Source: Propionibacterium ruminifibrarum
GTDB taxonomy: Bacteria; Actinomycetota; Actinomycetes; Propionibacteriales; Propionibacteriaceae
Assembly (NCBI RefSeq): GCF_900289195.1
Contig: NZ_OMOH01000001.1
Coordinates: 148,706 to 180,705 of the forward strand
Length of the DNA stretch: 32,000 bases
Direction of reading: 5' to 3'
Shown here: positions 172 to 19,753 of the stretch, piece after piece
Layout: each line of letters opens with the position of its first letter
How positions within the stretch are numbered: position 1 is the stretch's first letter
The notes under the pieces: model-generated
Database searches by the model: none
What the model was told of the DNA's origin: nothing
The model's input: the letters and a program-made list of their open reading frames with translations, nothing else
Program-made: the position numbers and the translations under genes

Positions 172-1422
172 ATGACCGCTTACCACATGTCGGCCCTCGC
201 GGCTTGCTCGGTGAAGCCCTTACCGAAGCGTCCCCGGATTTGATGCGCAGCCTTCTCCAGGACGTGATCAATGCCCTGCTGTCCGCGGACGCGGACGCTG
301 TTGCCGGCGCGGAGTACGGCCGGCCCAGCCCGGACCGGTCCGCCCAGCGTAATGGCTACCGCCATCGTGATCTCGATACCCGTGTGGGCACGATTGACGT
401 TGCGATCCCCAAGCTACGCTCCAGCACCTATTTCCCCGAGTGGCTGCTGGAGCGCCGCAAGCGCGCCGAGTCCGCGCTGATCACGGTCGTGGCGGACTGC
501 TACCTCGCCGGCGTCTCCACTGGTCGCATGGACAAGTTGGTCAAGACCTTGGGCATCAACAACCTCTCGAAGTCGCAGATCTCTCGCATGGCCTCGGATC
601 TGGACGAGCACGTCGAGCAGTTCCGCCACCGCCCGCTGTCGGAGTCTGGCCCGTTCACGTTCGTGGCCGCCGACGCCTTGACGATGAAGGTCCGCGAGGG
701 CGGCCGGGTCATCAACGCCGTCGTGCTCCTGGCCACCGGCGTCAACGGCGACGGGCACCGCGAAGTCCTCGGCATGCAGGTCGCGACCTCCGAGACCGGC
801 GCGGCCTGGAACAGTTTCTTCGCCGATCTGGTCGCCCGCGGCCCGGGCAGGGGTCCGCCTGGTCACATCCGACGCTCATGCCGGGCTGGTCGAAGCGATC
901 GCAGCCCACCTACCTGGCGCAGCCTGGCAGCGCTGCCGCACCCATTACGCGGCGAACCTGATGAGTGTCTGTCCCAAGGACACGTGGCCGGCAGTGAAAG
1001 CGATGCTGCACAGTGTCTACGACCAGCCCGACGCCACCGCCGTGAACGCCCAGTTCGAGCGGCTGCTGGACTACGTTGGCGAGAAACTCCCGGCCGTGGC
1101 CGAGCATCTCGACGACGCCCGCGCCGACTTGCTGGCGTTCACCGCGTTCCCCAAGAATGTATGGGCCCAGATCTGGTCGAACAACCCCACCGAACGCCTC
1201 AACCGGGAAATCCGCCGCCGCACCGACTCCGTCGGCATCTTCCCCACCCGCGACGCGATCATCCGCCTCGTCGGCGCAGTACTGGCCGAACAGACCGATG
1301 AATGGGCCGAAGGCCGCCGCTATCTCGGCCTGGACGTCCTGACCCGCTGCCGTCTCAACGCCATCACCGACGCCACAACACAGGAGATAACTACCAACCC
1401 CCCGCCCTCCCTCACCGCCTAA
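172..1422 (+). pseudogene. IS256-family (mutator-type) transposase, frameshifted
   Basis: The 204..1301 frame gives LLGEALTEASPDLMRSLLQDVINALLSADADAV...YRHRDLDTRVGTIDVAIPKLR...YFPEWLLERRKRAE. The homologous continuation VRLVTSDAHAGLVEAIAAHLPGAAWQRCRTHYAANLMSVCPK... is in the 961..1422 frame, implying a 1-nt indel near 850. The N-terminus MTAYHMSALAA (172) is in yet another frame, so a second indel near 200 is likely. Confidence 0.85.
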
Positions 1423-1506
1423 TCCCCAACGAAGGACCACTACACACTTGGAGTGCTTGGTGTTTTTCGAACAGTGGGTGAAATGATCGTGAGGTAGAAT
1501 TAGATC

Positions 1507-1794
1507 ATGTCGGCACCGAAATACAGTGCGGAGTTCAAGGAACAAGTCGTTCCAGAGGTCGTCCAGAAGTCCAGGCCGATAGCCGAGGTCGCCAGGTCGT
1601 ATGGTCTTGTGGCGCAGACGGTTGGGAACTGGGTCGCGAAATGGCGGAAAGAACACCCCGACCCCGGTACTGATGGCACCACCGCGGAAGAACACGCCGA
1701 GATCAGGCGCCTGAAAGCTGAACTCCGGGAAGCCCGCATGGAGGCCGAGTTCCTGAAAAAAGCGGCGGCCTTCTTCGCCCAGGAGTCCGGGTGA
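1507..1794 (+). CDS. IS3-family transposase OrfA (HTH subunit)
   Basis: The 95-aa ORF reads MSAPKYSAEFKEQVV...VARSYGLVAQTVGNWVAKWRKE...LKAELREARMEAEFLKKAAAFFAQE, a typical IS3 OrfA with an HTH and a leucine-zipper-like C-terminus. Confidence 0.85.
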   Translation: MSAPKYSAEFKEQVVPEVVQKSRPIAEVARSYGLVAQTVGNWVAKWRKEHPDPGTDGTTAEEHAEIRRLKAELREARMEAEFLKKAAAFFAQESG

Positions 1795-2391
1795 GCGTGA
1801 AATACCGTTGCATCAACCGCGAGGAAGGCAACTACCCGGTCCGCTCCATGTGCCGGTGGGCGAAAGTATCCAAGTCAGGCTACTACGCGTGGCGAAACCG
1901 ACCCAAGTCCTCAACGGCCCGGCGGAGGGAAGACCTGACGGCCATCATCAAAGTAATCTTCGCCGAGTCCGAGCAGACCTACGGCTACCGCCGAATCCAC
2001 GCCGAGCTGGCCCGAAACCGAACCCGGGTCTCGCGCGACACGGTCCGCAAGATCATGGCAGCAGAAGGTCTCGTTGCTTGTCAGCCCACGAAACGAGCCA
2101 AGACGACCACCCCTGCCCCCGACCTTCCAGGCCGGCCCGACCGACTGGGAAGGGACTTCACCGCCACCGCCCCGGGAATGAAATGGGTGGGCGACATCAC
2201 GTACATCCCGACCTGGCAGGGATTCGCCTACCTCGCGGTGGTTATGGACTGCTTCAGCCGGAAGATCGTCGGGCACACGAATCGCCGGTCACATGCGCAC
2301 CGGACTCGTCACCCAAGCCCTGGCTATGGCCCTGCGAAACTGCCCACCAACCCGCGGTGTCACTGTCTTTCACTCGGACCGGGGAGCCCAA
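1755..2391 (+). pseudogene. IS3-family transposase OrfB, 5' part (DDE integrase core), frameshifted and then cut by IS30
   Basis: The sequence reads ...YGYRRIHAELA...KWVGDITYIPTWQGFAYLAVVMDCFSRKIVG, then a 1-nt indel near 2275, then GHMRTGLVTQALAMAL...VTVFHSDRGAQ, ending exactly at the IS30 junction. Confidence 0.8.
1756..1762 (+). promoter_or_regulatory. Putative programmed -1 ribosomal frameshift heptamer AAAAAAG (orfA to orfB)
   Basis: An A6G run sits near the end of orfA. The -1 frame is open from here (EKSGGLLRPGVRVSVKYRCI...) into orfB. The motif is lost in copy 2 (GAGGAAAG). Confidence 0.5.
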
Positions 2392-3886
2392 GGTGGGTTC
2401 AACTGGTCGTCGCAACACCTTGAGGTGAGAGGTGTGGTTGATGGTGGTCGAGGACTGGGGTTTGAGGGTCGGGGGCGTGCCGGGGGTGGTGCGTCGGCAG
2501 TGGCGGGCTGATCGCGCGTTGCGGCCTGCGATGCGGTCCCCGGGTAGGCCAGAACCGTCTCGGGCGGTGCAGCGGCAGTTCTGGCGGATCATCGCGACTG
2601 GTGTCACGACTGCGGAAGCGGCGACGATGGTGGGCGTGTCTGTTCCGGTTGGTTCACGCTGGTTTCGTCACGCTGGGGGCATGCCGCCCATCCGTTTATC
2701 TGAGCCCAATGGTCGTTATTTGTCCTTTGAGGAGCGGGAGGAGATCGCGATCTTGCGGGCCAAGGGGGCCGGGTCCGTGCCATCGCGCGTGCTATCGGTC
2801 GTGATCCCGGTACCGTGTCACGGGAGTTACGGCGTAATGCCGCCACGAGGAGCGGGAAACTGCAGTACCGGGCCACGGTGGCCCAGTGGAAGGCCCAGCA
2901 AGCGGCCAAACGACCCAAGACCGCGAAACTGGTTACCAATCCCCGATTACGGGAGTACGTCCAAGACCGTCTCGCGGGCAGGGTCACCGGCCCTGACGGC
3001 ACGCCTGTCACCGGGCCCGCCACACCGGCTTGGAAGGGTCTGAACAAGCCTCGTAGACAAGACAGGCGATGGGCAACGGCTTGGAGCCCTGAGCAGATCA
3101 GTAACCGCTTGAAGCTGGACTTCCCCGATGATGAATCCATGCGGATCAGTCACGAGGCGATCTACCAGTCACTGTTCATCGAGGGGCGCGGCGCGCTCAA
3201 ACGCGAGCTCGTGGCCTGCCTGCGGACCGGGCGAGCCTTGCGGCGGCCAAGGGAACGTTCCCGCAACAAGCCCCACGGTCACGTCACTGCTGATGTCGTG
3301 ATCAGCAGACGCCCCGCACAGGCCGCCGATCGAGCAGTTCCAGGCCACTGGGAAGGCGACCTGATCATCGGAACAGGCCGGTCTGCGATCGGTACCCTGG
3401 TCGAACGCAGTAGCCGCGCCACGATCCTTGTTCATCTGCCCCGACTGGAAGGCTACGGCGAGCAGCCACGCGGCAAGAACGGCCCCGCCCTGGCCGGATA
3501 CGGCGCTGAAGCGATGAACACCGCGCTGGCCGCCTCGATCACGGCCCTGCCCCAGCAACTACGCAAGACCATCACCTGGGACCGCGGCAAAGAACTATCC
3601 GGCCACGCAGCCTTCACCATGGCAACAGGAACACGAGTTTACTTCGCCGACCCCCACTCACCCTGGCAGCGCCCCACTAACGAGAACACCAACGGGCTCC
3701 TGCGCCAGTACTTCCCCAAAGGCACCGACCTGTCCCGCTGGAACGCCACAGACCTCGAAGCAGTCGCCCACACCCTCAACAACCGACCCCGCAAAATCCT
3801 AGGATGGAAAACCCCAGCAGAAGTCTTCAACGAACAACTACAATCACTCAAACAAGCCAGTGTTGCAACGACCGATTGAACCCAGT
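2392..3886 (+). mobile_element. IS30-family element (1495 bp) inserted in IS3 orfB
   Basis: Terminal IRs are GGTGGGTTCAACTGGTCGTCGCAACAC (2392..) and the reverse complement of GTGTTGCAACGACCGATTGAACCCAGT (..3886). A 3-bp TSD CAA lies at 2389..2391 and 3887..3889. Removing the element restores HSDRGAQ|YTS in IS3 orfB. Confidence 0.85.
2531..3879 (+). pseudogene. IS30-family transposase with a single frameshift
   Basis: The N-terminal part MRSPGRPEPSRAVQRQFWRIIATGVTTAEAATMVGVS...EEREEIAILRAKGAG is in one frame. VRAIARAIGRDPGTVSRELRRN...GHWEGDLIIG...TWDRGKE...NENTNGLLRQYFPKGTDL is in the next frame. The shift lies in a G-run near 2778 (GGG where GGGG would keep the frame). Confidence 0.8.
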
Positions 3887-4177
3887 CAATACACGTCGGC
3901 CGAATACACGCAATTCATGACCGACCGTGGGATTCTCTCGTCCGTGGGCCGGACCGGTAGCTGCTTCGACAACGCCGCCGCCGAGTCCTTCAACGCGATC
4001 CTGAAAAAAGAACTCACCAACCGTAAGGTCTACCCGACCCGCCTGCACGCGGCCCGGGACGTGACAGCCTGGATCGAGTTACGATACAATCACAAACGCC
4101 TCCACTCAGCCATCGACTACCAGACCCCCAACGAAGTCGACACCGAATGGAGACAACACCACAAGACAGCAGCCTAA
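3887..4177 (+). pseudogene. IS3-family transposase OrfB, 3' part
   Basis: QYTSAEYTQFMTDRGILSSVGRTGSCFDNAAAESFNAILKKEL...RYNHKRLHSAIDYQTPNE is the canonical IS3 OrfB C-terminus, in frame with the 5' part across the IS30 insertion. Confidence 0.8.
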
Positions 4178-4237
4178 AACCAACCACCAACCACTGTCCG
4201 AAAAACCTATATCACTTCAACTCCCAGGGACTTGACC

Positions 4238-5128
4238 GTCTGTGGTGGTCGATCGGATGTCGATTGCCCGGGCCTCGGCCAACCTCGGTGTTGCCTGGAA
4301 CACCGCCTCGGATGCGATCTTGGCCGCCGGCACCGAGTTGCTGAGCGACAACGCTGACCGGCTGGAGGGCGTCACCACGGTCGGGGCCGATGAGTATGTC
4401 TGGCGGCGCACCCAAGCTGGCGACAAGTACGTCACCGGCATCATCGACTTGACCCTGACAAGGACCAAGATCGGAGCGCCGAGGTTGTTGGCGGTGGTGG
4501 AGGGCCGATCGAAGCAGGCATTCAAGTCCTGACTCGACGCCCAACTGAGGCGTTCCGTGACCGGGTGGAGAGCGTCGCGATGGACGGCTTCACCGGTTAC
4601 AAGACCGCAGCACTCGAAGCGATCGACACTGTGGTCACAGTCATGGATTCCTTCCATGTGGTGGCCCTGGTCGCAGAGAAGCTGGACCACTGCCGGCAAC
4701 GCGTCCAACACGAGGCTCTGGGGCATCGGGGACGCCCCGGTGACCCGCTCTACGGCATCCGCCGCGCCGCCCGCACCCGGGCAGGGCTGTTGACCACCAA
4801 GCAGCAGCACCGGCTCGCGAAGGTGTTCGTTGACGAGCGACATATCGCGTTCGAGGTCACCTGGAGCTTCTACCAAGAACGTGATAGACGCCTACCAAGC
4901 CCACGACCCAGCCGAGGGGAAGAAGATCATGACCCGTTTGATCACCAGCATCCACAGCGGAGTTCCGAGTGGCTTCGACTAGCTACGGCCACTAGGACAC
5001 ACTGACACGGCGCCGCGATAACACCCTGGCGTTCTTCTATCACCCCGGCACATCGGACGGCCCCACCAAGACCGTAACGGACTGCCCGAACACCTCCGCT
5101 TCAGACCACTGATCCACTCACTTCTGTG
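4238..5128 (+). pseudogene. ISL3-family transposase, decayed (TGG to TGA nonsense near 4530 and several frameshifts)
   Basis: Successive frames read ...TTVGADEYVWRR...VTGIIDLT...LLAVVEGRSKQAFKS*LDAQ, then EAFRDRVESVAMDGFTGYKTAALEAIDTVVTVMDSFHVVALVAEKLDHCRQRVQHEALGHRGRPGDPLYGIRR..., then NVIDAYQAHDPAEGKKIM...LAFFYHPGTSDGPT... The stop falls inside the right IR. Confidence 0.75.
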
Positions 5129-5135
5129 AAGAGCC
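5106..5135. repeat. ISL3 right terminal inverted repeat
   Basis: CCACTGATCCACTCACTTCTGTGAAGAGCC is the reverse complement of GGCTCTTCACAGAAGTGAGTGGATCAGTGG, which is GGCTCTTC-type. Confidence 0.6.
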
Positions 5136-5309
5136 GTTTCGCCGGAACACGGGGTACTGGGGAGCCGCGGATTCGGCCCGCGCTCAAGAACGGCGTGGTG
5201 CGCGGACCATGGTGTGGAAGCAACGGTGCTGAGGGCTTCAAGCGGCAGACATAAGACACCAGCCTCCCGCGATCGACACAGTGCCAGCTTCTCCTCAAGG
5301 TTGGCACCA

Positions 5310-5326
5310 TTCTCTTCACAGGAGTG
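5310..5326 (+). repeat. Orphan ISL3 IR-like sequence facing rightward
   Basis: ttCTCTTCACAGgAGTG matches the reverse complement of the 5135 terminus (GGCTCTTCACAGAAGTG) at 14 of 15 core positions. No transposase gene follows it. Confidence 0.35.
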
Positions 5327-5410
5327 TACGATTGAGAGTACAGCTTGACACCTGAGCGGTTGGAGCGCCAGCCACGTAGCCAGCCAGATCCTCGCCCCGA
5401 GAAGCTCTCG

Positions 5411-6952
5411 ATGCTATCCTCGGAGGGACAGACAAGCATCAAACAAGGGGCAAAAGTGGTCATCAATGAGGCTGTATCTGGGTTACTTCTTGACGAACGC
5501 AACCCACGGTTCCGAGAGCAAGTTAACGGACAGGATGAAGCCGTCACAGTGCTCCTACTAGACGCTGCAGACAAGCTCGTCAACCTTGCACATGACATCG
5601 CAACGCAGAATTCGCTCAATCCAACAGACCTCCCAGTCGTAGTTGAAGAAGATGGCGAACTGGTCGTTATCGAGGGGAATAGGCGGCTTGCCGCGCTAAA
5701 GCTGCTTCGTAATCCGGCTCTCGCGACGGCGGCAGCAGCGGAGTTGGACGAACCTCTTGTTGGGAAGTTCAAGACGCTTCAGCAGATTGGCGTCGGCCCG
5801 GACTCGATTGACGCCTTTCAGGCAGATAGTCGCGAGGCTGCACGGCACTGGATCAAACTGCGACACACAGGTGAGAACGACGGGGTCGGCGTTGTTGGGT
5901 GGAAATCATGGCAAACCAATAATTATCGACGCAGGAGAGGGAGTCAAGCTGACCGAGCCACGATGTTTTGTGAGGCAGTGGAAGTCGATTTCCCGGACGA
6001 CACAGAGCTGCTATCCAACGTGGTGGCCGTACGTCAAAATCGTTTGACAACCCTGGGGCGTTTGGTTGCAGATCCTGACGTTCGTCGCGATTTTGGCTTC
6101 CAGTTTGATGAGGACGCTGTGCTGTTTGATTACGAGACCGATGATCTTCGCGCTGGAGTGAGTCGTATCTTCAGCGATCTTGCCCTGACGGCCAATGGCG
6201 TGAGCGTTACTGATATCAAGTCGAAAGACCAACGCCGACAGTACGTGGCTGATCGTTCCGAAGTTTTACCCAACAGGGCGAATCGACTTTCCACCCCCAG
6301 ACGCCCTGGTGAGAAGTCCTCACTTGATCTCTTAGATGAGAATGATGGTGGTACCAGTACTGATGTTAGAGGCGGCGTTTCTAGTGTCGGATCAGGTGTG
6401 GGCAATGGTGCAGGGTCAGCAGGAAACAGAACTTCCACCAGCGGAGAGTTGAACAACAGAGGTGGGATTTCTGTTAAAGGCAGGAACGGGAAGACCCCGC
6501 CACCAGAAAACGTGATTTTCAAATCGTTGAAGATGCCTCACTTAAATCCGCGCATTCGAGAACTTCTCGACATGTCTCATAAGATCAACATCGTCGATGC
6601 TGCGCCTGTTAGCGGGATACTGGTACGCGTCCTCTTGGAGCTCACCGTCACTGAGGCTATCGCCTGCGGAGCCGTCACAGGCGCGACGGAGGGTGACTCG
6701 CTGAAGAAGAAGGTTCGGCAGGCGTTGTTGACGCTTGACCGCAATTGCGAGAACCCGTCTAAGCGAGACAAGTCGCTGGAAATGGCTTGGACGAGAACCC
6801 AAGATGGAGATGCGTTAGCTGTCCAATCCTTAAACGCCTTCGTTCATAACATCCATGGCAACGCTGCCCCGTCAGAAGTGCGGGCCCTGAGTCAGACGTT
6901 CCGACCCGTGTTGGAGCGTTTGGATCAACTCATTGGCAGCCACGTAAAGTGA
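5411..6952 (+). CDS. ParB/Srx N-terminal-domain protein with a Gly/Ser/Asn-rich linker and a helical C-terminal domain of unknown function
   Basis: The ORF is open from 5345. Candidate starts are ATG 5411 and GTG 5456, the latter preceded by AAGGGG. Motifs are LLLDERNPRF, then LPVVVEEDGELVVIEGNRRLAALKLL, whose GxxRxxA box lies at 5675..5695. The stop overlaps the start of the downstream methyltransferase (GTGA). Confidence 0.7.
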   Translation: MLSSEGQTSIKQGAKVVINEAVSGLLLDERNPRFREQVNGQDEAVTVLLLDAADKLVNLAHDIATQNSLNPTDLPVVVEEDGELVVIEGNRRLAALKLLRNPALATAAAAELDEPLVGKFKTLQQIGVGPDSIDAFQADSREAARHWIKLRHTGENDGVGVVGWKSWQTNNYRRRRGSQADRATMFCEAVEVDFPDDTELLSNVVAVRQNRLTTLGRLVADPDVRRDFGFQFDEDAVLFDYETDDLRAGVSRIFSDLALTANGVSVTDIKSKDQRRQYVADRSEVLPNRANRLSTPRRPGEKSSLDLLDENDGGTSTDVRGGVSSVGSGVGNGAGSAGNRTSTSGELNNRGGISVKGRNGKTPPPENVIFKSLKMPHLNPRIRELLDMSHKINIVDAAPVSGILVRVLLELTVTEAIACGAVTGATEGDSLKKKVRQALLTLDRNCENPSKRDKSLEMAWTRTQDGDALAVQSLNAFVHNIHGNAAPSEVRALSQTFRPVLERLDQLIGSHVK

Positions 6953-7827
6953 GTCATCCGTTTCTCAGCCCGCTCCGATATCCGGGGGGCAAAGCTCGCG
7001 TCGCACCTTACCTCGCATCATTGATGCGCACCCAGTCGCCTCGACCAACGATTTATGCAGAGCCCTTCGCTGGCGGCGCTGGTGCCGCCCTCCGTCTACT
7101 TGTCGATGAACAAGTGCGCGCGGTCCGTATCAACGATCTCGCGCCAGGGATCGCCGCTTTCTGGCGGTGTGTCTTCTATGACACCGAGCGGTTCGCTAGA
7201 AAGATAGAGAGTGCCGTTGTTGATCTTGAGCAATGGAAACAGGCGAGACAGATATTTGAGAGCCCTTTTGGGCAAGAGGATCTCGAACTTGGATTCGCAA
7301 CGTTTTTCCTGAATAGGTGTAATCGATCTGGCATTCTTACCGCACGCCCGATTGGAGGAATGAACCAGACGGGCAAGTGGAAAATTGATGCACGATTTAA
7401 CCGGGTAGACCTTGCGGAACGGGTGCGTCGCTTGGGGCAGTACCGCCGACGAGTACAAGTCTCGCAGCTAGATGGCCGGGAATTCATGAGAACGCTCCAA
7501 CCACTAGGTAGCGATGCTTTCGCTTACGTCGACCCGCCCTACATTGTTCAAGGTGAGAACCTGTACCTCGATTCGCTTTCATATGATGATCACAGACTTC
7601 TCGCAGCAGAACTACGCGCCTCCTCAACTCCTTGGATGCTGACATACGATGTCAGCGAGCGCGTGACCGAAGAGCTCTATGCTGGACTGCGAATGGCTCG
7701 GTTTGACATCGCTCACACGGCGCAACGCCAACACATCGGCTCAGAAATTGTCGTGTTCAGTGAGAACATTGACATCGAAAGCATTCAACTGCTCAGAGGT
7801 GCAAATGCCTCTTGGGTGTCGGCTTAG
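6949..7827 (+). CDS. D12-class (Dam-like) DNA N6-adenine methyltransferase
   Basis: Motifs are PLRYPGGK at the N-terminus, EPFAGGAG (the AdoMet site) and YVDPPY (DPPY at 7531..7542). The 292-aa length is typical of Dam-family enzymes. Confidence 0.85.
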   Translation: MSHPFLSPLRYPGGKARVAPYLASLMRTQSPRPTIYAEPFAGGAGAALRLLVDEQVRAVRINDLAPGIAAFWRCVFYDTERFARKIESAVVDLEQWKQARQIFESPFGQEDLELGFATFFLNRCNRSGILTARPIGGMNQTGKWKIDARFNRVDLAERVRRLGQYRRRVQVSQLDGREFMRTLQPLGSDAFAYVDPPYIVQGENLYLDSLSYDDHRLLAAELRASSTPWMLTYDVSERVTEELYAGLRMARFDIAHTAQRQHIGSEIVVFSENIDIESIQLLRGANASWVSA

Positions 7828-7867: not shown

Positions 7868-8816
7868 TGGAATGCTCGGTTTTTCGGACAGTGGGCGAAA
7901 TGATCGTGAGGTAGAATTAGATCATGTCGGCACCGAAGTACGGCGCGGATTTCAAGGAACAAGTCGTTCTCGAGGTCGTCCAACAGTCCAAGCCGATAGC
8001 GGGGGTCGCCAGATCATACGGTCTTGTGGCGCAGACGGTCAGGGTGTTGGGTTGCGAAGTGGCGGAAAACACACCGGCCCCGGTACAGATGGCACCACCG
8101 GAAGAACACGCCGAGGTCAAACGCCTGAAAGCAGAACTCCGGGAAGCCCGCATGGAGGCCGAGCACCTCGAGGAAAGCGGCGGCCCTCGTTCACCCCAGG
8201 AGCCCCGGGTGAGCTCGGAATACTGCCCCAGATCTTCCAGGCCGGCCCGACCGGCTGGGAAGGGACCTGCTCGGCCACCGCTCCCGGTACGGGATGGGGA
8301 TGGGTGGGCGGAATCACGTACGTTCCGACCTGGCAGGGATTCGCCTACCTGGCGGTGGTCATGGAGCGCTTCACCCGTAAGATCATCGGCGCGCGATTGC
8401 CGGTCACATGCGCACCGAGCTCGTCACCGAAGCCCTGGCCATGGCCGCGTCGGGCCTGCCCACCGACCCGTGGGGTCACGATCTCCCCGCTCGGACCGGG
8501 GAGTCAAATACGCGTCGGCTTGTTACACGGAATTCATGACCAATCACGGGATTCTCCCGTCCGTGGGGCGGGACCGGTAGCTGCTATGGCAATGCCGCCG
8601 CTGAGTCCTTCAATGCGTTTGAAAAAGAACTCGTGGGTCAGCATGCAGCTCGAGACGTGACAGCCTGGATCGAGTTACGATACAATCACAAACGCCAACC
8701 GCTCGGCCATCGATTACCAGACCCTCAACCAAGTCGATACCGAATGGAGACAACAACACAAGACAGCAGCCTAAAGCCAACCATTAACCACTGTCTGACA
8801 AACCTATATCACTCCA
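7868..8816 (+). mobile_element. IS3-family element copy 2, an internally deleted and decayed remnant in the same orientation as copy 1
   Basis: Its left end TGGAATGCTCGGTTTTTCGGACAGTGGGCGAAATGATCGTGAGGTAGAATTAGATCATG aligns with copy 1 at 1449... Its right end is ...AACCACTGTCTGACAAACCTATATCACTCCA. orfA is recognisable (MSAPKYGADFKEQVV...). About 300 bp of the orfA/orfB junction is missing, there are many substitutions, and there is no obvious TSD. Confidence 0.8.
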
Positions 8817-8877: not shown

Positions 8878-9074
8878 TCAGTTCAGGAGCCGAGCGAGTA
8901 GCTCGGCTTTGTCGAGACGTGCAACTAGGTGGTAATCTTTGCCAGACTCTCAACAAGTACCTCTTGCACTGTGTTCTGCCACGCGGGGAATTCCTAACCG
9001 GCCTGCTGCACGCCAAGGCTAAAAGCTTGCTCTTTAAGCTCCTCAAGGACTTCGATGGCGCGCTCTGCCCTCAT
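8878..9074 (-). pseudogene. Decayed small ORF (about 65 codons) translationally coupled to the upstream HEPN-motif gene
   Basis: Its ATG at 9074 overlaps the TGA of the 281-aa ORF (ATGA). The translation is MRAERAIEVLEELKEQAFSLGVQQAG*EFPAWQNTVQEVLVESLAKITT, then a +1 shift to LVARLDKAELLARLLN*. It looks like a helical protein but carries an in-frame TAG and a frameshift. Confidence 0.3.
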
Positions 9075-9916
9075 CCTTCGTCCCCTTGGGCCAGTCTGAG
9101 AATGAGCGCACCCACGATGTGCACCATAAGCCACCCGTCTGCTGTGCTCGCATTCCCTGTGCCGGGGTGGGCGTCGCTCTTCTGGTTACGCACGCTTGCC
9201 ACCCAGCTCATGCTTTTCTCAATAGACTCGAGAAGGGGCGAATCCTCTCCTCCAAGGACATCTTTGGTCTTGGCATCCTTGAACTGTCGGTTGAGGGTCT
9301 CTCCCTCGCAGCCCACTGCCTTGAGCATCTCCTGGAGGGCTGTTCCCGCGTCGGTGAGGGCGTCTGCGGGGTTTCCCTGTGCGAGTTCCTCTAGCGCGGC
9401 TGTGTAGGCCTTCTCCACGCTTTCAAGGTAGGGTCGCCCGGACAAGAGCGTGAGAGTGGGCTCCATAATTGAAGCATGAAGTTCCTGCGATTTTTTCTGA
9501 CACATATTTCCGTCAATGAAATCGTAAGCAATGCGATGTTCATTCAGATTTCTTTTGATAAAAGCATCATACTCCGAGAGGTCGAAACGTTGCCACCCAT
9601 GAGACATGACCTGCTCGAGGCCAAAGCGCAAGGCCTCAATGATGTCAGGAACCGTCTCGTTCGGACCGAAGATCAGAGCATTCATTACGTCGGCATACTC
9701 TTCTAATTGGATGTGGTGGAGGTATGGCTTTCCCAACTCGAGCAGCATCTGATTTCGTGCTGTGTTGCAAATGCTCCATGCATACTCGAACAGATCTATG
9801 TAGTTTTTCACCTTGTAGCGGAAAGACTCATCGAATTCATCGGTCCAGAAGGAGACACCTTGAGCTTCCTGCTCGGCCATCTCCTGGAGTCGCTTCCGTC
9901 GTGAGTGGAGCGCCAT
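9071..9916 (-). CDS. Hypothetical protein with a C-terminal HEPN-like Rx6H motif (AbiJ/Ymh-like, possible abortive-infection RNase)
   Basis: The 281-aa ORF lies in low-GC DNA with an AGGAG RBS before the ATG. A C-terminal helical region (ALTDAGTALQEMLKAV...) ends in VRNQKSDAHPG (RNxxxxxH at 9167..9190). The family assignment is from memory of HEPN signatures and is not verified. Confidence 0.55.
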   Translation of the reverse strand: MALHSRRKRLQEMAEQEAQGVSFWTDEFDESFRYKVKNYIDLFEYAWSICNTARNQMLLELGKPYLHHIQLEEYADVMNALIFGPNETVPDIIEALRFGLEQVMSHGWQRFDLSEYDAFIKRNLNEHRIAYDFIDGNMCQKKSQELHASIMEPTLTLLSGRPYLESVEKAYTAALEELAQGNPADALTDAGTALQEMLKAVGCEGETLNRQFKDAKTKDVLGGEDSPLLESIEKSMSWVASVRNQKSDAHPGTGNASTADGWLMVHIVGALILRLAQGDEG

Positions 9917-10084: not shown

Positions 10085-11050
10085 TTAATCAGTCGCGTCC
10101 AGAATGTCTTCTTCACTGCTTTCTTTCGCGTCTTTGGGGCCTGCAACGGGAGACTCAATGAACTTCGGTAGCGCATCGACAAAGAAATGATCGATGGAGC
10201 GGATGTGCTGTCTCAGGAGTGGGTCACTCTCCATCATGGGGAGCAGATCACAGTAGAAGACGCCGTCGAGAGGGTTTAGCTTCACCGTGTAGCCCTTGAA
10301 ATGGCCTCGAAGGAAGGTTTGACTGATACCGTAATTGGGTTCTTTCCCCTTTCTCTGTACATCGTGGAGGAAGATGGCGAAGTGGGGTAGCTCCACACTT
10401 GTCAGACGGTTGTAGAGAAACTTGTCGATGAAGACCTTGTCTAGGCGGTCTTTGCTGGATGTCTTAACTGACCCGATGGCCTTCAGGTCACCCTTCACCT
10501 CTACCATGAGGTCGTGCTGGTAGTTCATCTTGAAGAGCTCAGTATTGTTCTCGTCCTTCACCGGTACAGCCAGCACGCCGGAGTGACACTCAGCCCCGCA
10601 CTCCTCAACTAGGAGGCCAATGAAGCGCTCGAAGAGATCGCCGTTCACCTTTCGGGCTTGGTTGCTTGCTCCTACTGGAAGAGCGTCGAGGGCAGCACCG
10701 ATGGTCTGCTGTGAGGTGTAGATGACTCGCTGAAGAGCGCGGCGCCCCTCTGCGCCGACCTCTTCTCCATCCGCGCATGCTTGGAGCGTCTCAATGAAGG
10801 TTGCCCGTGCCGCCTCGAAGTTTTCTAAGTCGTAGAAGATATCGCTGTTGATTGGGCGCGAGATTTGAAATCCGGCCTCCTCTTTGAACTGGATAAAGCG
10901 GTAACGGTGGTCGTTTTTCGCTACTAATTCAGCCTGCATTCCTCCATTGGACCGCCACTCCATGAAAGCGGTGGCGAAGGTCAAGTAGTCCTGTGGCATA
11001 GTGAAGCGGGACTTGTCAATGGCCCACTCGCGGAGTTGGATAATGTTCAT
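10085..11050 (-). CDS. Putative type II restriction endonuclease, partner of the upstream methyltransferase
   Basis: The 321-aa ORF starts with an ATGA overlap on the methyltransferase stop. A candidate PD-(D/E)XK-like hairpin is QHDLMVEVKGDLKAIGSVKTSSKDR (D-x13-SVK, or KD...EVK), preceded by the helix DLFERFIG. I recognise no other domain. Confidence 0.55.
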   Translation of the reverse strand: MNIIQLREWAIDKSRFTMPQDYLTFATAFMEWRSNGGMQAELVAKNDHRYRFIQFKEEAGFQISRPINSDIFYDLENFEAARATFIETLQACADGEEVGAEGRRALQRVIYTSQQTIGAALDALPVGASNQARKVNGDLFERFIGLLVEECGAECHSGVLAVPVKDENNTELFKMNYQHDLMVEVKGDLKAIGSVKTSSKDRLDKVFIDKFLYNRLTSVELPHFAIFLHDVQRKGKEPNYGISQTFLRGHFKGYTVKLNPLDGVFYCDLLPMMESDPLLRQHIRSIDHFFVDALPKFIESPVAGPKDAKESSEEDILDATD

Positions 11051-12012
11051 CGGATCGAGCCTCTTCTTTCGGCGTTGCGGCGATCGTGCTCGAACCAGTC
11101 ATCTTCGGTCTGGAAAGGGACACGAGCGAGGCGCTCGGCTGCCCAGCTGTTGTAGGTGGGGTCAAGCTCGCAGGCAAGCCACCGCCGCTCGAGCTGGGTG
11201 GCAACCACAGCGGTTGTTCCCGATCCAGAGAATGGGTCTACGACAAGATCGCCTGGTCGAGACCCCGCGAAAACGAACTTTCTTACGAGCTCTTCGGGCT
11301 TCTGAGTCGGGTGTGGAGTTTTCTCGTTCATTCCGTTGCAGGTGGTGGGAACTTCGATGACATCCTTGGGCTTGGCGCCCAGCGGGTGCGGCATCCAATT
11401 ATCTCGCTTACTAGGTCCTTTGCCGTAGGCGGATGTCTCCGCTTGTGGGTGGGAGGGGTATTTGAGTGTGTGATTCCCGTAGGGAATGCGCACATGGTCG
11501 ATGTCGTGGAGCTTCTGAGCCTTGCTCTTTCGTAGATGCAGGATGCTTTCGTGAGAGCGTCCCCAGTCGTTACCCAGATTCGCCTTATTCTTGTAGTGCC
11601 AGACCAGCCAGCGTGACGCCTTGAAGTATCTACTAGCGGGGTGCTTGAGGTCAGCAAGAATCTCGGAGAAGCCACAAATGTAGAGGCTTCCTGTAGGGCT
11701 GAGGATGCGGCTGGCCTCACTGATCCATTGCAGAGACCACTCTATGTAAGCCTCCTGTGACTCGAAGTTGTCCCAGTCTGCCTTCTTGATGTTGTAGGGT
11801 GGGTCGGCAAAGACGAGCTCCACGCTCCCGCTTGGAAGTGTCGTTAACCATTGAAGCGAGTCTCCTTGAAACAGCGTCCCCTGTTCCGTGAGTACTTGCT
11901 CTTGACAGCGACCTACGCCCACCGGCTCAAAGTTCGCCTCTTGGGCTAGGTCGTGGACGGAGCGAATGTCGTGGTTGAATAGGGGTACTGCGGACTGTCT
12001 TGTTGTGACCAT
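11047..12012 (-). CDS. Beta-class DNA methyltransferase (N6-adenine or N4-cytosine), N6_N4_Mtase type
   Basis: The motif order is that of the beta class: FADPPYNI (motif IV, 11794..11805) comes before VVDPFSGSGTT (motif I) near the C-terminus. An AGGGAG RBS precedes the ATG at 12012. Confidence 0.85.
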   Translation of the reverse strand: MVTTRQSAVPLFNHDIRSVHDLAQEANFEPVGVGRCQEQVLTEQGTLFQGDSLQWLTTLPSGSVELVFADPPYNIKKADWDNFESQEAYIEWSLQWISEASRILSPTGSLYICGFSEILADLKHPASRYFKASRWLVWHYKNKANLGNDWGRSHESILHLRKSKAQKLHDIDHVRIPYGNHTLKYPSHPQAETSAYGKGPSKRDNWMPHPLGAKPKDVIEVPTTCNGMNEKTPHPTQKPEELVRKFVFAGSRPGDLVVDPFSGSGTTAVVATQLERRWLACELDPTYNSWAAERLARVPFQTEDDWFEHDRRNAERRGSIR

Positions 12013-12263: not shown

Positions 12264-13220
12264 TCAGCGGAACGACGTCGAGGCATCGTCCAGGGCCGAC
12301 ACCTCATCGGCGGTCAACTCGAGGGTGGCCGAGGCGAGCAGAGCCGGGAGCTGTTCCGGGGTGCGGGCCGAGGCGATCGGCGCGGTGACCCCCTTGGCGC
12401 GCAGCCAGGCCAACGCGACCGTGCTCACCTCGACCTCGTGAGCATTCGCGACACCCCGCACCACGTCGAGCAGCGAGAACGCGGCCAGCGTGACCGCTTC
12501 GTCGGGCAGATAGGCGTCGATCATGTCCGCCCGGGCCGTGCCCTGGACGTCCTGAGGTGAGCGGTACTTGCCGGTCAGCAGCCCTGAGGCGAGCGAGAAG
12601 TAGGGGAAGACGGCCAGGTCGAACTCGCGGGCGAGCGGCCCGTAACCGTTCTCCACGTCGCCGCGGTGCAGCAGGTTGTACTGCGGCTGCAGGGCCACCG
12701 GACGGGCCAGGCCCTGCCGATCGGCGTACTCGATCCAGGCGCGTTCGCGTTCGACGGAGAAGTTCGACAAGCCGATGTGGCGCACCGTTCCGTTCCTGAC
12801 GAGGGCGTCGAAGGCCGTGGCCATGTCCTCGACGCTCTGGCTCTGGTCGTCGAAGTGGGCGTAGTACAGGTCGATGCGGTCCGTGCCGAGGCGTTCCAGG
12901 GATGCCTGCGCGGCGGCCGCGATGTTGGTGGGGGAGAGGCCCTTGAACTGCGGGTGCGTGGCCACCTTGGTGGCGATCACCACCTGGTCGCGGTTGCCGC
13001 GGGCTGCGAGCCATCGCCCGATGATCGTCTCGGACTCGCCGCCGCTGTTGCCCGGGGCCCAGGCCGAGTAGCCGTCCGCGGTGTCGATGAGTGACCCGCC
13101 GGCCTCGACGAAGGCATCGAGTACGGCGAACGAGGTCTTCTCGTCGCTGGTCCAGCCGAAGGTGTTGGCGCCCAGGACGAGCGGGAGGATGTCGATGTCG
13201 GTACGCGGAATCTGCACCAC
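12264..13220 (-). CDS. Aldo/keto reductase family oxidoreductase
   Basis: Motifs are LGANTFGW...LDAFVEAGGSLIDTADGYS...LERLGTDRIDLYYAHFDD...GTVRHIGLSNF. The ORF is open to 13277, but GTG 13220 preceded by AAGGGG is the more likely start. Confidence 0.85.
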   Translation of the reverse strand: MVQIPRTDIDILPLVLGANTFGWTSDEKTSFAVLDAFVEAGGSLIDTADGYSAWAPGNSGGESETIIGRWLAARGNRDQVVIATKVATHPQFKGLSPTNIAAAAQASLERLGTDRIDLYYAHFDDQSQSVEDMATAFDALVRNGTVRHIGLSNFSVERERAWIEYADRQGLARPVALQPQYNLLHRGDVENGYGPLAREFDLAVFPYFSLASGLLTGKYRSPQDVQGTARADMIDAYLPDEAVTLAAFSLLDVVRGVANAHEVEVSTVALAWLRAKGVTAPIASARTPEQLPALLASATLELTADEVSALDDASTSFR

Positions 13221-13394
13221 GGGAACCCCTTTCAGCGTCTGGCCCCATCGTAGGGGCACAGGCCACAGGCGGGTCACCGGATGAGATCAAGCCCACGCCA
13301 CTTGCGGGCTGCCATGGCGCGGGCCGGTGCGGGCGCGGCATGCAAGGACCCGGTGTGCGAGAAAAGCGGCCCCATGGCACGGGACCGTCATCTG

Positions 13395-13468
<74 letters not shown>

Positions 13469-13864
13469 CCGGGCCATCACGGCCCGCCGCTGAACTCTAG
13501 CCCATGTCACTCGTGGTTTTCCAGTCGAGTCCTCGGGGCATGTCCGGGCCCGGGGCCGTGGCGCCACCACTGCACCTGATGCCACCGCGGTCCTCGAGTC
13601 AGTCCGGGGTCGTATCAGCGCGGATCATCGGTAACGACTATGGTTGCACCCGAGACACGAGCTCAGCGCCGAGCCTGGTGTCTGGCGTGAACGGCTCACA
13701 CCCCCGTGACAAGCCGGGAAACGTCAGCTCTGCGCAGAGGACACCAGTCCCTGTTCCGCTCTGAGAGGAATGGACGGGCACTGATTCCCCTAAGGGTTCT
13801 GAGAAGATGTGTCACGGCGGGCCCACCCCTGGTGCCCGCGATCCGTTGCGATGAAGGAGTCGGT

Positions 13865-14350
13865 ATGGAGGAAGTGGACACAATCCTCGAAGTCGAGAGA
13901 GAGTTCGCCTGTCCCCGCGACGTACTGTTCAGGGCATTCACCGAGCCCGCCGCGTTCAGTCAGTGGTTCGCACCGACCGGCTGGCACGTGCTCCCCGAGT
14001 CGGTGGAGCTGAACCCCCAGCTGGGCGGTCGCATCCGCCACACGAAGGTGCGCGACGACGACCCCGAGAAGATCTGGGTCGTCGACGGTGTCTACACGGA
14101 GGTCTTCTACCCCGACGTCCTCGTCACGCGCCAGCGCATCAGCGGCATCGCCGGGATCGACCCGAGCCGTCCGGTCGAGCTGCGCGTGGAGTTCACCCGA
14201 CTGGGCCAGGGCAAGACGCTGCTGAGGATCGTCCAGGGGCCCTACACCGAGTCCGCAGCCCTGGACTACTCCGACGGCTGGGAGTCCATCCTCGACCACC
14301 TCCAGACCTACCTCGACACCCTCAACACACCCAAGGACACCACGCGATGA
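13865..14350 (+). CDS. SRPBCC/AHSA1-like domain protein
   Basis: MEEVDTILEVEREFACPRDVLFRAFTEPAAFSQWFAPTGW...GWESILDHLQTYL follows the Aha1/START-like pattern. The upstream part of the 13706 ORF does not look coding. Confidence 0.65.
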   Translation: MEEVDTILEVEREFACPRDVLFRAFTEPAAFSQWFAPTGWHVLPESVELNPQLGGRIRHTKVRDDDPEKIWVVDGVYTEVFYPDVLVTRQRISGIAGIDPSRPVELRVEFTRLGQGKTLLRIVQGPYTESAALDYSDGWESILDHLQTYLDTLNTPKDTTR

Positions 14351-15720
14351 GCCAGACCACCACGGCCACCACCGTCATCCGGCGCAAGCCGATGATGTCG
14401 ATGAAGCAGATTCTCCTCATGAACCTGGGCTTCTTCGGCATCCAGTACTCGTTCGGCATGCAGCAGACGGCCATCAACCCGATCTACAACTTCCTCGGCG
14501 CCTCGCCGGAGCAGCTGCCCCTGCTCAACATGGCCGGTCCGATCACCGGCCTGTTCATTCAGCCCCTCATCGGCTCCCTGTCCGACCGGACGTGGAGCGA
14601 GCGCTGGGGCCGACGCAAGCCCTTCTTCCTCATCGGCGCCACCGGGTGCGCGGTCTGCCTGTTCTGCTTCCCGTTCGTCTCGGCCGTCTGGATGGCGGCG
14701 TTGCTGCTGTGGCTGCTCGACGCCTCGAACAACACGGCCATGGAGCCCTACCGCGCCTTCATCGCCGACAAGCTGCCCCCGAGCCAGACGGCCAAGGGCT
14801 TCCTGGCGCAGAGCTTCTTCACGGGCCTGGGCATCACGCTCGCCAACATCTCCCTGTTCCTGTTCCAGCACGTCCTGTCGGGCATGACTGCCGCCGGGCT
14901 GCCGTACTGGGTCTTCGGCTCGTTCATGCTCGGCTCGGTCTGCTCGATCGGCACCGTGCTCGTCTCCGTGCTCAGCACCCCGGAGATCCCGCCCTCGCCG
15001 GAGGAGCTGGCCAGGCTTCGGTCGAAGCAGAACGACAACGCCCTCAAGGGCATCTGGACGGCCATCGTCGAGATGCCCACCCAGCTGCGCAAGCTCGCCC
15101 TGGTCTACCTGTTCCAGTGGTACGCGATGAACGTCTACTGGCAGTACGTGTCGCTGTCGGTCGCCAAGAGCGCCTTCGACACCACGGACACCCACTCGTC
15201 CGCCTACGAGTCCGCCGTCACCTGGACCGGGTTGATCAACGGCGGCTACAACGTCGTCACCTTCTGCGTGGCCTTCTCGCTGGTCGCCTTCGCCAAGAAG
15301 CACGGCGCCAAGTACGTGCACTCGGCCTGCCTCATGCTCGCCGTGATAGGTCTGCTGTTCTTCCCCCACATCGGCAACAGGTTCCTGCTGTTCCTGCCGA
15401 TCATCGGCCTGGGCGTCGCCTGGGCCTCCATCATGGGTGTGCCCTACATCATGGCCGTGCGCATGGTGCCGTCCAGCCGCTACGGCGTCTACATGGGCAT
15501 CATCAACATGATGATCGTCATCCCGCAGCTGCTGCAGACCCTCACCTTCGGCGCGGTGTACAAGCACCTGCTCGGTTCCAACCCGACCAACGCCATCACC
15601 TTCGCAGCCATCCTGCTCGGGTGCGCCGCGGTGGCAATGCTCTGGATCAAGGAGCCGCCGATCGTGCGCGACGTGGACGACGTCTCTGCCCCGGCCAAGG
15701 TCCAGATGGGGGAGGAGTGA
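14347..15720 (+). CDS. MFS/GPH-type sugar:cation symporter, sucrose-transporter-like
   Basis: It has 12 predicted hydrophobic segments, and LSDRTWSERWGRRKPFFLIG resembles the RxGRR(K/R)PF loop of SUC/SLC45-type carriers. Its start overlaps the previous stop (ATGA). An amylosucrase gene lies in the same operon. Confidence 0.8.
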   Translation: MSQTTTATTVIRRKPMMSMKQILLMNLGFFGIQYSFGMQQTAINPIYNFLGASPEQLPLLNMAGPITGLFIQPLIGSLSDRTWSERWGRRKPFFLIGATGCAVCLFCFPFVSAVWMAALLLWLLDASNNTAMEPYRAFIADKLPPSQTAKGFLAQSFFTGLGITLANISLFLFQHVLSGMTAAGLPYWVFGSFMLGSVCSIGTVLVSVLSTPEIPPSPEELARLRSKQNDNALKGIWTAIVEMPTQLRKLALVYLFQWYAMNVYWQYVSLSVAKSAFDTTDTHSSAYESAVTWTGLINGGYNVVTFCVAFSLVAFAKKHGAKYVHSACLMLAVIGLLFFPHIGNRFLLFLPIIGLGVAWASIMGVPYIMAVRMVPSSRYGVYMGIINMMIVIPQLLQTLTFGAVYKHLLGSNPTNAITFAAILLGCAAVAMLWIKEPPIVRDVDDVSAPAKVQMGEE

Positions 15721-15723
15721 GCC

Positions 15724-16245
15724 ATGGACCTCGATCGCTACCAGAAGATCCTCGTCGGCACGGACGGATCGTCCCTCGCCGGCCCCACCGTCACCCGGGC
15801 GGCCCGGCTGGCCGTGGCCGACGACGCAGACCTCATCGTCGTGTGCGCCTACACGAAGCTGCCTCCCCGCGAGGCCGCCAAGGACCCCAACATCGAGGGC
15901 TCGGTGGCCACACTCGGCCAGGTGCCCGGCACTGAGGCGGCGACTCAGGCGATCCAGGAGGCCATGCGGGTCGCCCACGACGAGGGGGCCCGCGTGACGG
16001 CGGCCCTGCTCGTGGACTCAGACCCGGCCGCGGCGATCCTCGAGACCGCCCGAGACCACCGGGTCGACGCCATCGTCATCGGCGCCATCCGCGACACCTC
16101 GATCGTCGGCCGCCTGCTGGGGACGGTGGCCTCCGACGTCGTGCGTCGAGCCCACCGCGACGTACTCATCGTGCGCCCCACCGAGGACGCCCCGGAGCCG
16201 AACGTGGCCGAGGACGTCCAAGTCGACGATGTCACGGAGGACTGA
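15724..16245 (+). CDS. Universal stress protein (UspA family)
   Basis: The pattern is ILVGTDGS...AVADDADLIVVCAY...RVDAIVIGA...GRLLGTVASDVVRRAHRDVLIV. A GGAGGAG RBS is present. Confidence 0.85.
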   Translation: MDLDRYQKILVGTDGSSLAGPTVTRAARLAVADDADLIVVCAYTKLPPREAAKDPNIEGSVATLGQVPGTEAATQAIQEAMRVAHDEGARVTAALLVDSDPAAAILETARDHRVDAIVIGAIRDTSIVGRLLGTVASDVVRRAHRDVLIVRPTEDAPEPNVAEDVQVDDVTED

Positions 16246-16248
16246 GGC

Positions 16249-18129
<1,881 letters not shown>

Positions 18130-18219
18130 CGCCCTACCCCCACTCGGCCCGTGCTTGCCGGCCGGCGCTGTTCTGCGACAATGGCGGCAGCGAGGAGAAC
18201 CGACGATGGGGGATGAGCC

Positions 18220-18684
18220 GTGCCTGAGCGCATGAACGTGGAGAGCTTCAACCTGGACCACCGGAAGGTGTCCGCGCCCTTCATCAGGATCGCCGACGTG
18301 AAGGAACTGCCGGCCGGCGACGTGCTCACCAAGTACGACGTGCGCTTCTGCCAGCCCAACCGCGAGCACCTCGACATGGCGACAGTGCACTCCATCGAGC
18401 ACTCCTTCGCCGAGTGCGTGCGCAACCACAGCGACGCCGTCATCGACTTCGGACCGATGGGCTGCCAGACCGGTTTCTACCTGATCATGGCCGGTTCACC
18501 CGACGTATCCGCCACCTGCGAGCTGGTCGAACGCACCCTGCGTGACATCCTCGAACTGGCGGCCGTTCCCGCCGCCAACGAGATCCAGTGCGGGTGGGGC
18601 GCCCACCACAGTCTCGAAGGGGCACAGGGGGCCGCCGCCGCGATGCTCGCCCGCCGCGGCGAGTGGGAACAGGTCATGGCCTGA
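18220..18684 (+). CDS. luxS: S-ribosylhomocysteine lyase
   Basis: Motifs are FNLDHRKV, the metal site HSIEHSFAE (HxxEH) and [11 protein letters not shown]. The start is GTG 18220, or alternatively ATG 18232. Confidence 0.9.
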
Positions 18685-18779
18685 CCGTCCTCGGCGGCGA
18701 GTACCGGCCCGGCACGAGGGCCAGGCTGACAGCACTTCCCGCGGCGCGCATGGCGTCCCGGGGCGAAAGGAGTCGTTCA

Positions 18780-19684: not shown

Positions 19685-19753
19685 TAAAATACTTACGAGT
19701 GTCTGGTTGTCACCCGCAGCACCAGGCCTCATGCACCGGAGGGATCATCAGAC

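Follow-up and report, generated by a model that had tools for sequence, protein, structure and literature searches.

The window analysed here is a stretch of 32,000 nucleotides (nt) from the actinobacterium Propionibacterium ruminifibrarum (NCBI RefSeq assembly GCF_900289195.1, contig NZ_OMOH01000001.1, positions 148,706–180,705 of the forward strand). It contains a pair of overlapping genes, both on the plus strand, which, judged by sequence matches, very probably form an intact PD-λ-5 anti-phage system acquired by horizontal transfer, a self-contained two-gene module resembling restriction-modification (R-M) systems. The first gene lies in an open reading frame (ORF) at 5345–6952 (535 amino acids counted from TTG) and encodes component A (5456–6952, 498 amino acids), for which a ParB/Srx N-terminal domain, a ParB-like DNA-binding region, a disordered linker and a HEPN-like C-terminal domain are predicted. 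The second gene (6949–7827) encodes component B, a predicted D12-class (Dam-like) N6-adenine DNA methyltransferase of 292 amino acids counted from GTG. The junction between the two genes reads AAAGTGAGTC; the GTG start of B (6949–6951) overlaps the TGA stop of A (6950–6952), and this 4-nt GTGA overlap (6949–6952), read directly from the sequence, implies translational coupling of A and B. An earlier annotation made from the letters of this DNA (hereafter the original prediction) had reported the ORFs 5345–6952 and 6949–7827, the overlap of the stop of A with the GTG of B, and the motifs LLLDERNPRF, GxxRxxA (5675–5695), PLRYPGGK, EPFAGGAG and DPPY; all of these were found where it had placed them.

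Residues of A are numbered here in the 498-amino-acid form. Three start codons can be proposed, TTG 5345, ATG 5411 and GTG 5456. The last is most likely the true start, because a P. ruminifibrarum 'hypothetical protein' of 498 amino acids in the NCBI database is 100% identical to component A, because the majority of A homologues start at the equivalent residue in the alignment, and because a purine-rich AAGGGG lies 5 nt 5' of GTG 5456. The G+C content is 0.54 in both genes, compared with 0.68 across positions 12264–32000. A terminator-like hairpin (5281–5307, plus strand), whose 10 pairs precede a T-rich tail, was observed about 150 nt 5' of GTG 5456, in the untranslated stretch past a fragment of an ISL3-family transposase gene; it may insulate the A-B pair against read-through from insertion sequence (IS) remnants. 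A scan for sigma-70 promoters, uninformative for actinobacteria, found none 5' of A on the plus strand and none between the hairpin and the start.

The identity of the pair rests on PADLOC models. Component A matched the PD-Lambda-5_A model PDLC04007 with an expectation value (E) of 5e-172 (ORF residues 41–533 of 535, profile positions 5–452 of 454) and also 25 further PD-Lambda-5_A models, and component B matched the PD-Lambda-5_B model PDLC04018 (E 3.5e-105, profile positions 4–280 of 291). Such E values lie well outside what chance would give. Pfam and NCBIfam scans of component A gave no match at E ≤ 0.1. The architecture is thus one already on record, and the locus would be labelled by a standard tool for defence annotation. 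The original prediction had favoured a defence or modification module over a partition system, and this view is supported by the PADLOC check that it proposed, in which both proteins matched PD-Lambda-5, and by the methylase pairing reported below. It had also known of no described defence system with such an architecture; this is refuted by the full-length PD-Lambda-5 matches and by two publications (Vassallo et al., 2022, PMC9519451; Anantharaman et al., 2013, PMC3710099). On its predicted proteins the locus is a further, actinobacterial copy of PD-λ-5, and its architecture is not new.

The system, called PD-Lambda-5 in PADLOC and DefenseFinder, came out of a functional selection in Escherichia coli ECOR7 (Vassallo et al., 2022, Nat Microbiol). 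The prototype consists of two genes in a P2-like prophage (RCQ13837.1 and RCQ13838.1), listed as 'ParB/HEPN, methyltransferase', in which HHpred recognized ParBc (96.4%, residues 6–89), DUF4145 (35.6%, 388–418), a weak HEPN_RiboL-PSP (469–498) and MethyltransfD12 (99.9%); the domains of A in the window are collinear with these. In E. coli the prototype confers protection from 9 of the 10 phages tested. Its range is the broadest among the 21 new systems, and protection is strongest against T-even phages; its discoverers call it a compacted RM+Abi system, combining R-M with abortive infection (Abi). Its cloning required a host deleted for the mrr-containing region (Vassallo et al., 2022), and the prototype methylase is therefore presumably active in vivo. 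ParB-HEPN fusions had been catalogued in a survey of HEPN domains, as had operons combining the genes for a ParB nuclease, a DNA methylase and a HEPN protein (Anantharaman et al., 2013). Later papers only count PD-λ-5 or repeat the reading of its discoverers; one survey of Actinobacteria finds it mostly prophage-borne. When a homologous locus from an enterobacterium was compared by blastn with 5,426 E. coli genomes, only the methylase was matched, beside a different partner. A tblastn search with A gave only 4 and 3 partial matches in phage and plasmid records respectively, and a protein search from a Kosakonia homologue gave 542 relatives, of which the best 120 included no protein that could be identified as that of ECOR7.

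The association of A with B was analysed in loci encoding a relative of A, 80 from each of two sources, species-representative genomes and IMG/VR viral contigs. A profile of A and component B served as queries against the ORFs of these loci, which yielded 123 full-length A homologues. A B-type methylase gene was present directly downstream on the same strand in 107 of the 123 loci, adjacent in another orientation (mostly convergent) in 11 and elsewhere in the flank in two; it was absent from one locus, and two loci ran off the contig end. Room downstream was available for 121 of the full-length homologues, and a B-type methylase was adjacent in 118 of these, so that the co-occurrence of the ParB-like protein with D12 methylases, a point raised by the original prediction, is borne out. 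The hosts belong to Actinomycetota, Bacteroidota, Pseudomonadota, Bacillota, Chloroflexota and Acidobacteriota and include some archaeal metagenome-assembled genomes as well as viral contigs; IMG/VR holds 196 relatives of A, and only 3 plasmid records hold one. No conserved third gene was found around the pair, the commonest flanking family, which resembles a prophage repressor, being present in 11 of 118 loci. In conclusion, A and B form a closed two-gene unit across phyla, and their pairing is obligate.

The genes overlap in 29 of the 107 co-directional pairs, with the same 4-nt overlap as in the window in 21. Because B is convergent with A in 11 full-length loci, translational coupling is not universal in the family; the convergent genes lie tail to tail, 3–15 nt apart. 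Across loci B is more conserved than A (for example, E 1e-60 vs 1e-13 within one locus), as a methylase is relative to the restriction enzyme in R-M systems.

About 37 further relatives share only the ParB N-terminal domain of A, and a Pfam scan found no assignable domain in their C-termini. Several of them still have a B-type methylase nearby. In ten loci (L141, L149, L153, L162, L069, L075, L147, L156, L157 and L159) such proteins are about 340–440 amino acids long; profile coverage stops near position 110–250, and the matches lie at about 4800–6100 or 5900–7060 of the respective loci. In the first four of these ten a B-type methylase gene follows at a distance of about 1 kb, on the other strand. 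N-terminal-domain-only relatives with a nearby methylase may represent a variant system.

Component A was modelled with AlphaFold2 on a 36-sequence alignment. The mean predicted local distance difference test score (pLDDT) was 83.7, with values above 90 over most of residues 1–290 and 350–498; the disordered segments were residues 138–149 and the linker. When the model was compared with the Protein Data Bank (PDB) by Foldseek, the top match was Myxococcus xanthus ParB bound to cytidine diphosphate (7bnk, E 8e-4, about 275 columns), followed by Noc (7ol9), KorB (8qa8), Bacillus subtilis ParB (6sdk) and sulfiredoxin (6ky4, core only). In addition, the family profile matched Helicobacter pylori Spo0J (4umk) with E 0.002, the EGNRR of A being aligned to AGERR. 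In the model, residues 1–290 (5456–6325) thus resemble a complete ParB N-terminal domain together with its DNA-binding domain, beyond the 'ParB nuclease' core. The N-terminal half carries the motif NPR within LLLDERNPRF (5501–5509) and EGNRRLAA (5672–5695), which includes the GxxRxxA box (5675–5695). In the 123 A homologues, N16 and R18 (5501–5509), G74, N75, R76 and R77 (which with E73 occupy 5672–5686), H137 (5864–5866) and W149 (5900–5902) are invariant, and E73 and R202 (6059–6061) are near-invariant, each present in 121. An acidic residue just before the glycine is characteristic of enzymatic branches of the ParB/Srx superfamily, as in DGQQR of DUF262/GmrSD/SspE and DGQHR of DndB. On the model and these residues, the N-terminal domain of A may bind a nucleotide, yet it need not act as a ParB-type CTPase. 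The Gly/Ser/Asn-rich linker (residues 296–347; 6341–6496) has pLDDT values below 50 and differs in length and sequence among A homologues. Both the ParB/Srx-type domain with an intact GxxRxxA box and the long linker had been recognized in the original prediction; the fold match and the modelled disorder agree with it on these points.

The C-terminal domain (residues 350–498; 6503–6949), modelled alone, is a six-helix bundle with a pLDDT of 92.8 and a predicted template-modelling score of 0.88; the typical HEPN fold is an up-down bundle of four helices, with an insertion between the second and the third. In a Foldseek search with this domain, every PDB match with a template-modelling (TM) score of at least 0.4 was a HEPN protein, namely 4nqf (0.49–0.52), the toxin 7ae6 (0.42) and the Csm6 structures 5fsh and 8jbb (0.40–0.43); unrelated helical bundles scored about 0.2. 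When the PDB was searched with a sequence profile of the domain, nothing but a designed zinc peptide was matched, and that match is spurious. H464 in LNAFVHN (6845–6847) closes the penultimate helix, ahead of a loop and the last helix, which is where HEPN proteins have their histidine; all of the 118 aligned sequences carry it. Helix 1 carries R391-x3-E395 (6626–6640); R391 is present in 122 of the 123 homologues, and position 395 is Glu or Asp in 122 of 123. HEPN families that keep the histidine without the motif arginine and carry other conserved basic residues have been described, and a second acidic residue is usual in HEPN domains (Anantharaman et al., 2013); in A it is present as E395. 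The C-terminal domain of A is probably HEPN-like and predicted to be active, an assignment that is weak and not proven. Since residues of the N-terminal half and of the C-terminal domain are invariant or near-invariant, both domains of A can be argued to be functional.

No PD-(D/E)XK, HNH, GIY-YIG or PLD endonuclease was found in component A, either in the Pfam and NCBIfam scans (E ≤ 0.1) or in its folds, which are ParB-like and HEPN-like. Two statements of the original prediction can be refined here. The C-terminal domain is, as it stated, helical and of about 150 residues, but its view that the domain could not be assigned no longer stands, as the model and DUF4145 point to a divergent HEPN-like domain. 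Likewise, its statement that no canonical nuclease is encoded agrees with the absence of PD-(D/E)XK and HNH matches in the Pfam and NCBIfam scans and, given the HEPN-like domain, is true only in the sense of a DNase.

Component B is predicted to be a D12-class N6-adenine DNA methyltransferase. It carries PLRYPGGK (6970–6993), EPFAGGAG (7060–7083), a SAM-binding motif of the FxGxG type, and the catalytic motif DPPY (7531–7542) and scores 54 bits against Pfam PF02086 (cut-off 22). Against TIGR00571 Dam, the orthodox GATC methylase, it scores 46.4 bits, below the cut-off of 114.85. It also matches the PADLOC type II methylase model MTase_II PDLC03358 (E 4e-69), and the closest structure to it in the PDB is 7m6b (E 2e-13). 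A methylase of the same subfamily was observed in an integrative and conjugative element (ICE) of E. coli (NZ_CP054282.1; positions 2930–5579 of our locus L082), where a PD-Lambda-5_B-type gene lies directly 3' of a gene for a 573-amino-acid 'ATP-dependent nuclease' resembling OLD, AriA, PtuA and GajA, among conjugative-transfer genes. The ICE methylase is 35% identical to B of the window over 272 residues (E 1e-72) and matches PD-Lambda-5_B with E 2.6e-122. This locus looks like an effector swap on a common methylase subfamily. Because the B subfamily also follows an OLD/AriA-like partner and scores as a type II methylase, the effector appears swappable and the methylase constant, as expected if A plays the part of the restriction component.

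From family membership, the A-B pairing, the ParB-like fold, the conservation of candidate residues and the defence conferred by the prototype, we infer the following mechanism. B would mark the host genome as self by N6-methyladenine (m6A). A would replace the restriction enzyme, its ParB/Srx N-terminal domain and ParB-like DNA-binding region engaging DNA, probably in a nucleotide-dependent manner. It would read the absence of the mark made by B and be licensed on DNA without it, and would then act by its ParB/Srx centre (nicking or hydrolysis of nucleoside triphosphates), by its HEPN-like domain (abortive infection through the cleavage of RNA) or by both. The stop/start overlap would couple synthesis, B being translated whenever A is. 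A methylation-gated, R-M-like system with a ParB-HEPN effector is the most likely interpretation. We give a probability of roughly 0.8 to the explanation as a whole, that is PD-λ-5 identity together with an R-M-like mechanism in which A is the effector; for the gating of A by methylation, taken as a separate step, the odds appear about even.

Several observations weigh against this explanation or parts of it. The tie to the validated prototype goes through PADLOC family models and collinear domain positions, and literature searches for the mechanism of PD-λ-5 or of ParB-HEPN-methylase systems returned surveys and the original paper only. In the N-terminal domain, the position of the glutamate of the ParB GERR motif is occupied by N75, invariant in 123 of 123 homologues. 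That glutamate is needed for CTP hydrolysis in partition ParBs, as known from Caulobacter and Myxococcus. CTPase-type switching is therefore not assured in A. The Foldseek search with the C-terminal domain gave no significant PDB match, the best E value (0.63) belonging to a non-HEPN protein, and DUF4145, of the HEPN clan, was the sole Pfam family matched repeatedly, in 6 of 36 members and below threshold (best E 0.022). The Rx4-6H motif of HEPN proteins is incomplete: no conserved arginine is found at 457–460 (D/N/E/S and N/H/Q), 4–6 residues before H464. Finally, the DNA of T-even phages is heavily modified. The strong protection against these phages therefore fits poorly with a simple reading of unmethylated adenine.

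The main rival to the methylation-gated reading, to which we give appreciably less credence, is a guard of the PrrC type. The HEPN domain of A would be a latent RNase restrained by B or by the A-B complex and freed when a phage inhibits or bypasses methylase or restriction, the methylation status of DNA not being read at all. Such a role was predicted for HEPN domains in R-M contexts by analogy with PrrC-EcoprrI (Anantharaman et al., 2013), and it agrees with the description of PD-λ-5 as 'RM+Abi' by its discoverers (Vassallo et al., 2022). The broad protection by the prototype, T-even phages included, suits an RNA-directed Abi effector, and translational coupling favours stoichiometric production of A and B. 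However, B is convergent with A, and not co-transcribed with it, in the 11 full-length loci described above; methylases of the B subfamily occur with other partners too, which speaks against a lock dedicated to these two proteins, and the invariant active site-like residues of the ParB/Srx domain would be left without a role.

A more specific form of the methylation-gated reading is improbable as it stands: A would be a nucleotide-gated clamp of the ParB type that scans DNA, is licensed by missing m6A and fires a non-canonical HEPN RNase whose arginine has moved to helix 1. If true, PD-λ-5 would be the first defence system with a ParB-CTPase-like sliding switch as the sensor of non-self and an RNA-directed effector.

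It is also doubtful that the pair is primarily an addiction module, in which A would be a stable toxin and methylation by B an 'antidote' diluted upon loss, so that the pair stabilizes the element that carries it and phage defence is a by-product. Type II R-M systems can behave as post-segregational killing modules. Prophages and viral contigs often carry the pair (the 196 IMG/VR relatives, and the prophage-borne majority in the Actinobacteria survey), and in the window it lies between IS copies. Nevertheless, the defence phenotype of the prototype was demonstrated experimentally, and the addiction reading uses the same molecular mechanism as the R-M-like explanation and is compatible with it.

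Very unlikely, in our view, is that A is a ParB-fold regulator of the methylase, similar to DndB or KorB and acting for example in an epigenetic switch, with the C-terminal bundle as a non-catalytic dimerization or sensor domain and defence arising from methylation or from other host factors. Its nearest folds are indeed the DNA-binding proteins ParB, Noc and KorB, the last of which is a transcriptional repressor; DndB, a ParB-superfamily protein, is a reported negative regulator of a DNA-modification operon, and the canonical HEPN arginine is missing. However, the two genes of the prototype suffice for strong and broad protection in E. coli K-12, which methylation plus a regulator cannot explain; R391, E395 and H464 are kept in the arrangement of histidine, acid and base typical of active HEPN variants, and no conserved operator-like repeat and no third effector gene were found.

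Finally, a partition or plasmid-maintenance ParB beside an orphan Dam methylase, or a KorB-type reading, was rejected in spite of the ParB-like fold with its intact GxxRxxA box and the location among mobile-element remnants, since the family partners strictly with a methylase rather than with an ATPase, has a HEPN-like C-terminus rather than the ParB dimerization domain, belongs to a PADLOC defence family and is held by only the 3 plasmid records, and since, as the original prediction had noted, ParA and parS are missing (no parS-like site within 3 mismatches in the window, no ParA among the scanned neighbours of the pair).

The pair lies in a low-GC defence island of about 7 kb amid mobile-element debris. 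Upstream, a Mutator-family (IS256-like) transposase gene (204–1298, plus strand; PF00872, E 6e-67) appears truncated or frameshifted, as the match spans profile positions 19–222 of 379. It is followed by a copy of an IS3-family element (1462–4219, plus strand; Pfam matches HTH_21, rve and rve_3), split by another IS-like insertion at about 2432–3880, and, directly 5' of A, by the ISL3-family transposase fragment (4242–5005, plus strand; PF01610 DDE_Tnp_ISL3, E 1e-16, partial profile). On the right side, a degenerate second IS3-family copy (7879–8816, plus strand) is a remnant of about 0.9 kb with an HTH_Tnp_1 match in frameshifted ORFs. The two IS3-family copies are direct repeats (D1–D8) with 82–93% identity. 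They bracket the ISL3 fragment and the PD-λ-5 pair in a layout like that of a decayed composite transposon.

Other defence genes are present 1.2–4 kb downstream of the pair, on the minus strand. The first (9071–9916) encodes a 281-amino-acid protein with weak AbiJ_NTD4 and Abi_C matches, a sub-threshold match to the STM4504/CBY_0614 family and the classical HEPN motif RNxxxxAH (VRNQKSDAHPG); it is likely an AbiJ-like abortive-infection gene. The next two genes (10085–11050 and 11047–12012), which overlap by 4 nt, form a canonical type II R-M pair: one of them encodes a restriction enzyme recognized by PADLOC (REase_II, 5e-85) and without a Pfam match, and within the same 10085–12012 interval lies an N6_N4 (beta-class) methylase (Pfam, 2.8e-45). 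The island thus holds two different DNA methylases, component B and the N6_N4 enzyme. Housekeeping genes, for an aldo-keto reductase, MFS transporters, an amylosucrase and an IclR protein, follow from about 12.2 kb on. The original prediction had placed the pair in low-GC DNA between IS elements beside defence genes, as the G+C contents, the IS copies and these downstream genes confirm.

The P. ruminifibrarum island therefore stacks three defence modules, PD-λ-5, the AbiJ-like HEPN protein and the type II R-M pair, and two genes gain a functional assignment, one of them so far annotated as 'hypothetical protein'. Alone, the locus adds little, as PD-λ-5 is already known and is detected by existing hidden Markov models. 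The comparative results, namely the closed unit, the two nearly invariant centres and the methylase common to other effectors, sharpen the targets for mechanistic work. If A were indeed a nucleotide-switched, methylation-reading sensor that fires an RNase, the ParB-CTPase field would be linked with immunity.

Among known systems, the C-terminal domain of A can be compared with HEPN families that keep the histidine but lack the motif arginine (Parep1/8, c2405 and a DUF4145-like clade). Common features are an invariant histidine that ends the penultimate helix, the lack of an arginine 4–6 residues before it, and strongly conserved basic and acidic residues elsewhere; sequence similarity is sub-threshold, and fold similarity reaches a TM score of only about 0.5 with non-significant E values. 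The usual HEPN pair is E-x3-[KR], whereas A has R-x3-E. The N-terminal half finds its best structural matches, over about 275 columns, in the CTP-dependent ParB, Noc and KorB clamps, and the arginine patch GxRRxxA is kept in A. Unlike these clamps, A has no ParA partner, no parS and no ParB C-terminal dimerization domain; a HEPN-like domain is fused to it and its partner is a methylase, and it has an invariant Asn in place of the Glu of GERR together with E73 (121/123) before the glycine.

SspE, GmrSD/BrxU and NsnA share with A a ParB/Srx-fold N-terminal domain, a DNA-binding region and a C-terminal effector, and they judge the modification state of DNA; the motif of an acidic residue, Gly, two residues and Arg is also common to them, as DGQQR in these proteins and EGNRR in A. 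Their effector is HNH/DUF1524, whereas that of A is HEPN-like (a predicted RNase), and their N-terminal domain is a ParB-like NTPase domain (DUF262), whereas that of A is closer to ParBc by HHpred and Foldseek. Moreover, they attack modified DNA or sense phosphorothioate, while A is paired with its own m6A methylase. Type II R-M systems resemble the pair in combining a methylase with a potentially toxic partner, in their overlapping genes and in the better conservation of the methylase, B itself being recognized as a type II methylase by PADLOC; in PrrC-EcoprrI a HEPN RNase is likewise tied to R-M function (Anantharaman et al., 2013). The pair differs from both by having no PD-(D/E)XK, HNH, GIY-YIG or PLD endonuclease, and in that one polypeptide, A, would unite restriction-like and Abi-like functions.

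The closest comparison is with the PD-λ-5 prototype. The copy in the window belongs to a different sequence cluster of the family, A scoring best on PDLC04007 and an enterobacterial relative on PDLC04013. The prototype comes from a P2 prophage hotspot of E. coli, whereas the present pair lies in an IS-bracketed chromosomal island of a high-GC actinobacterium. In both, A is encoded upstream of B, a ParB N-terminal domain, a linker and a HEPN-like C-terminal domain are combined with a D12 methylase, and the genes reside in mobile or accessory DNA.

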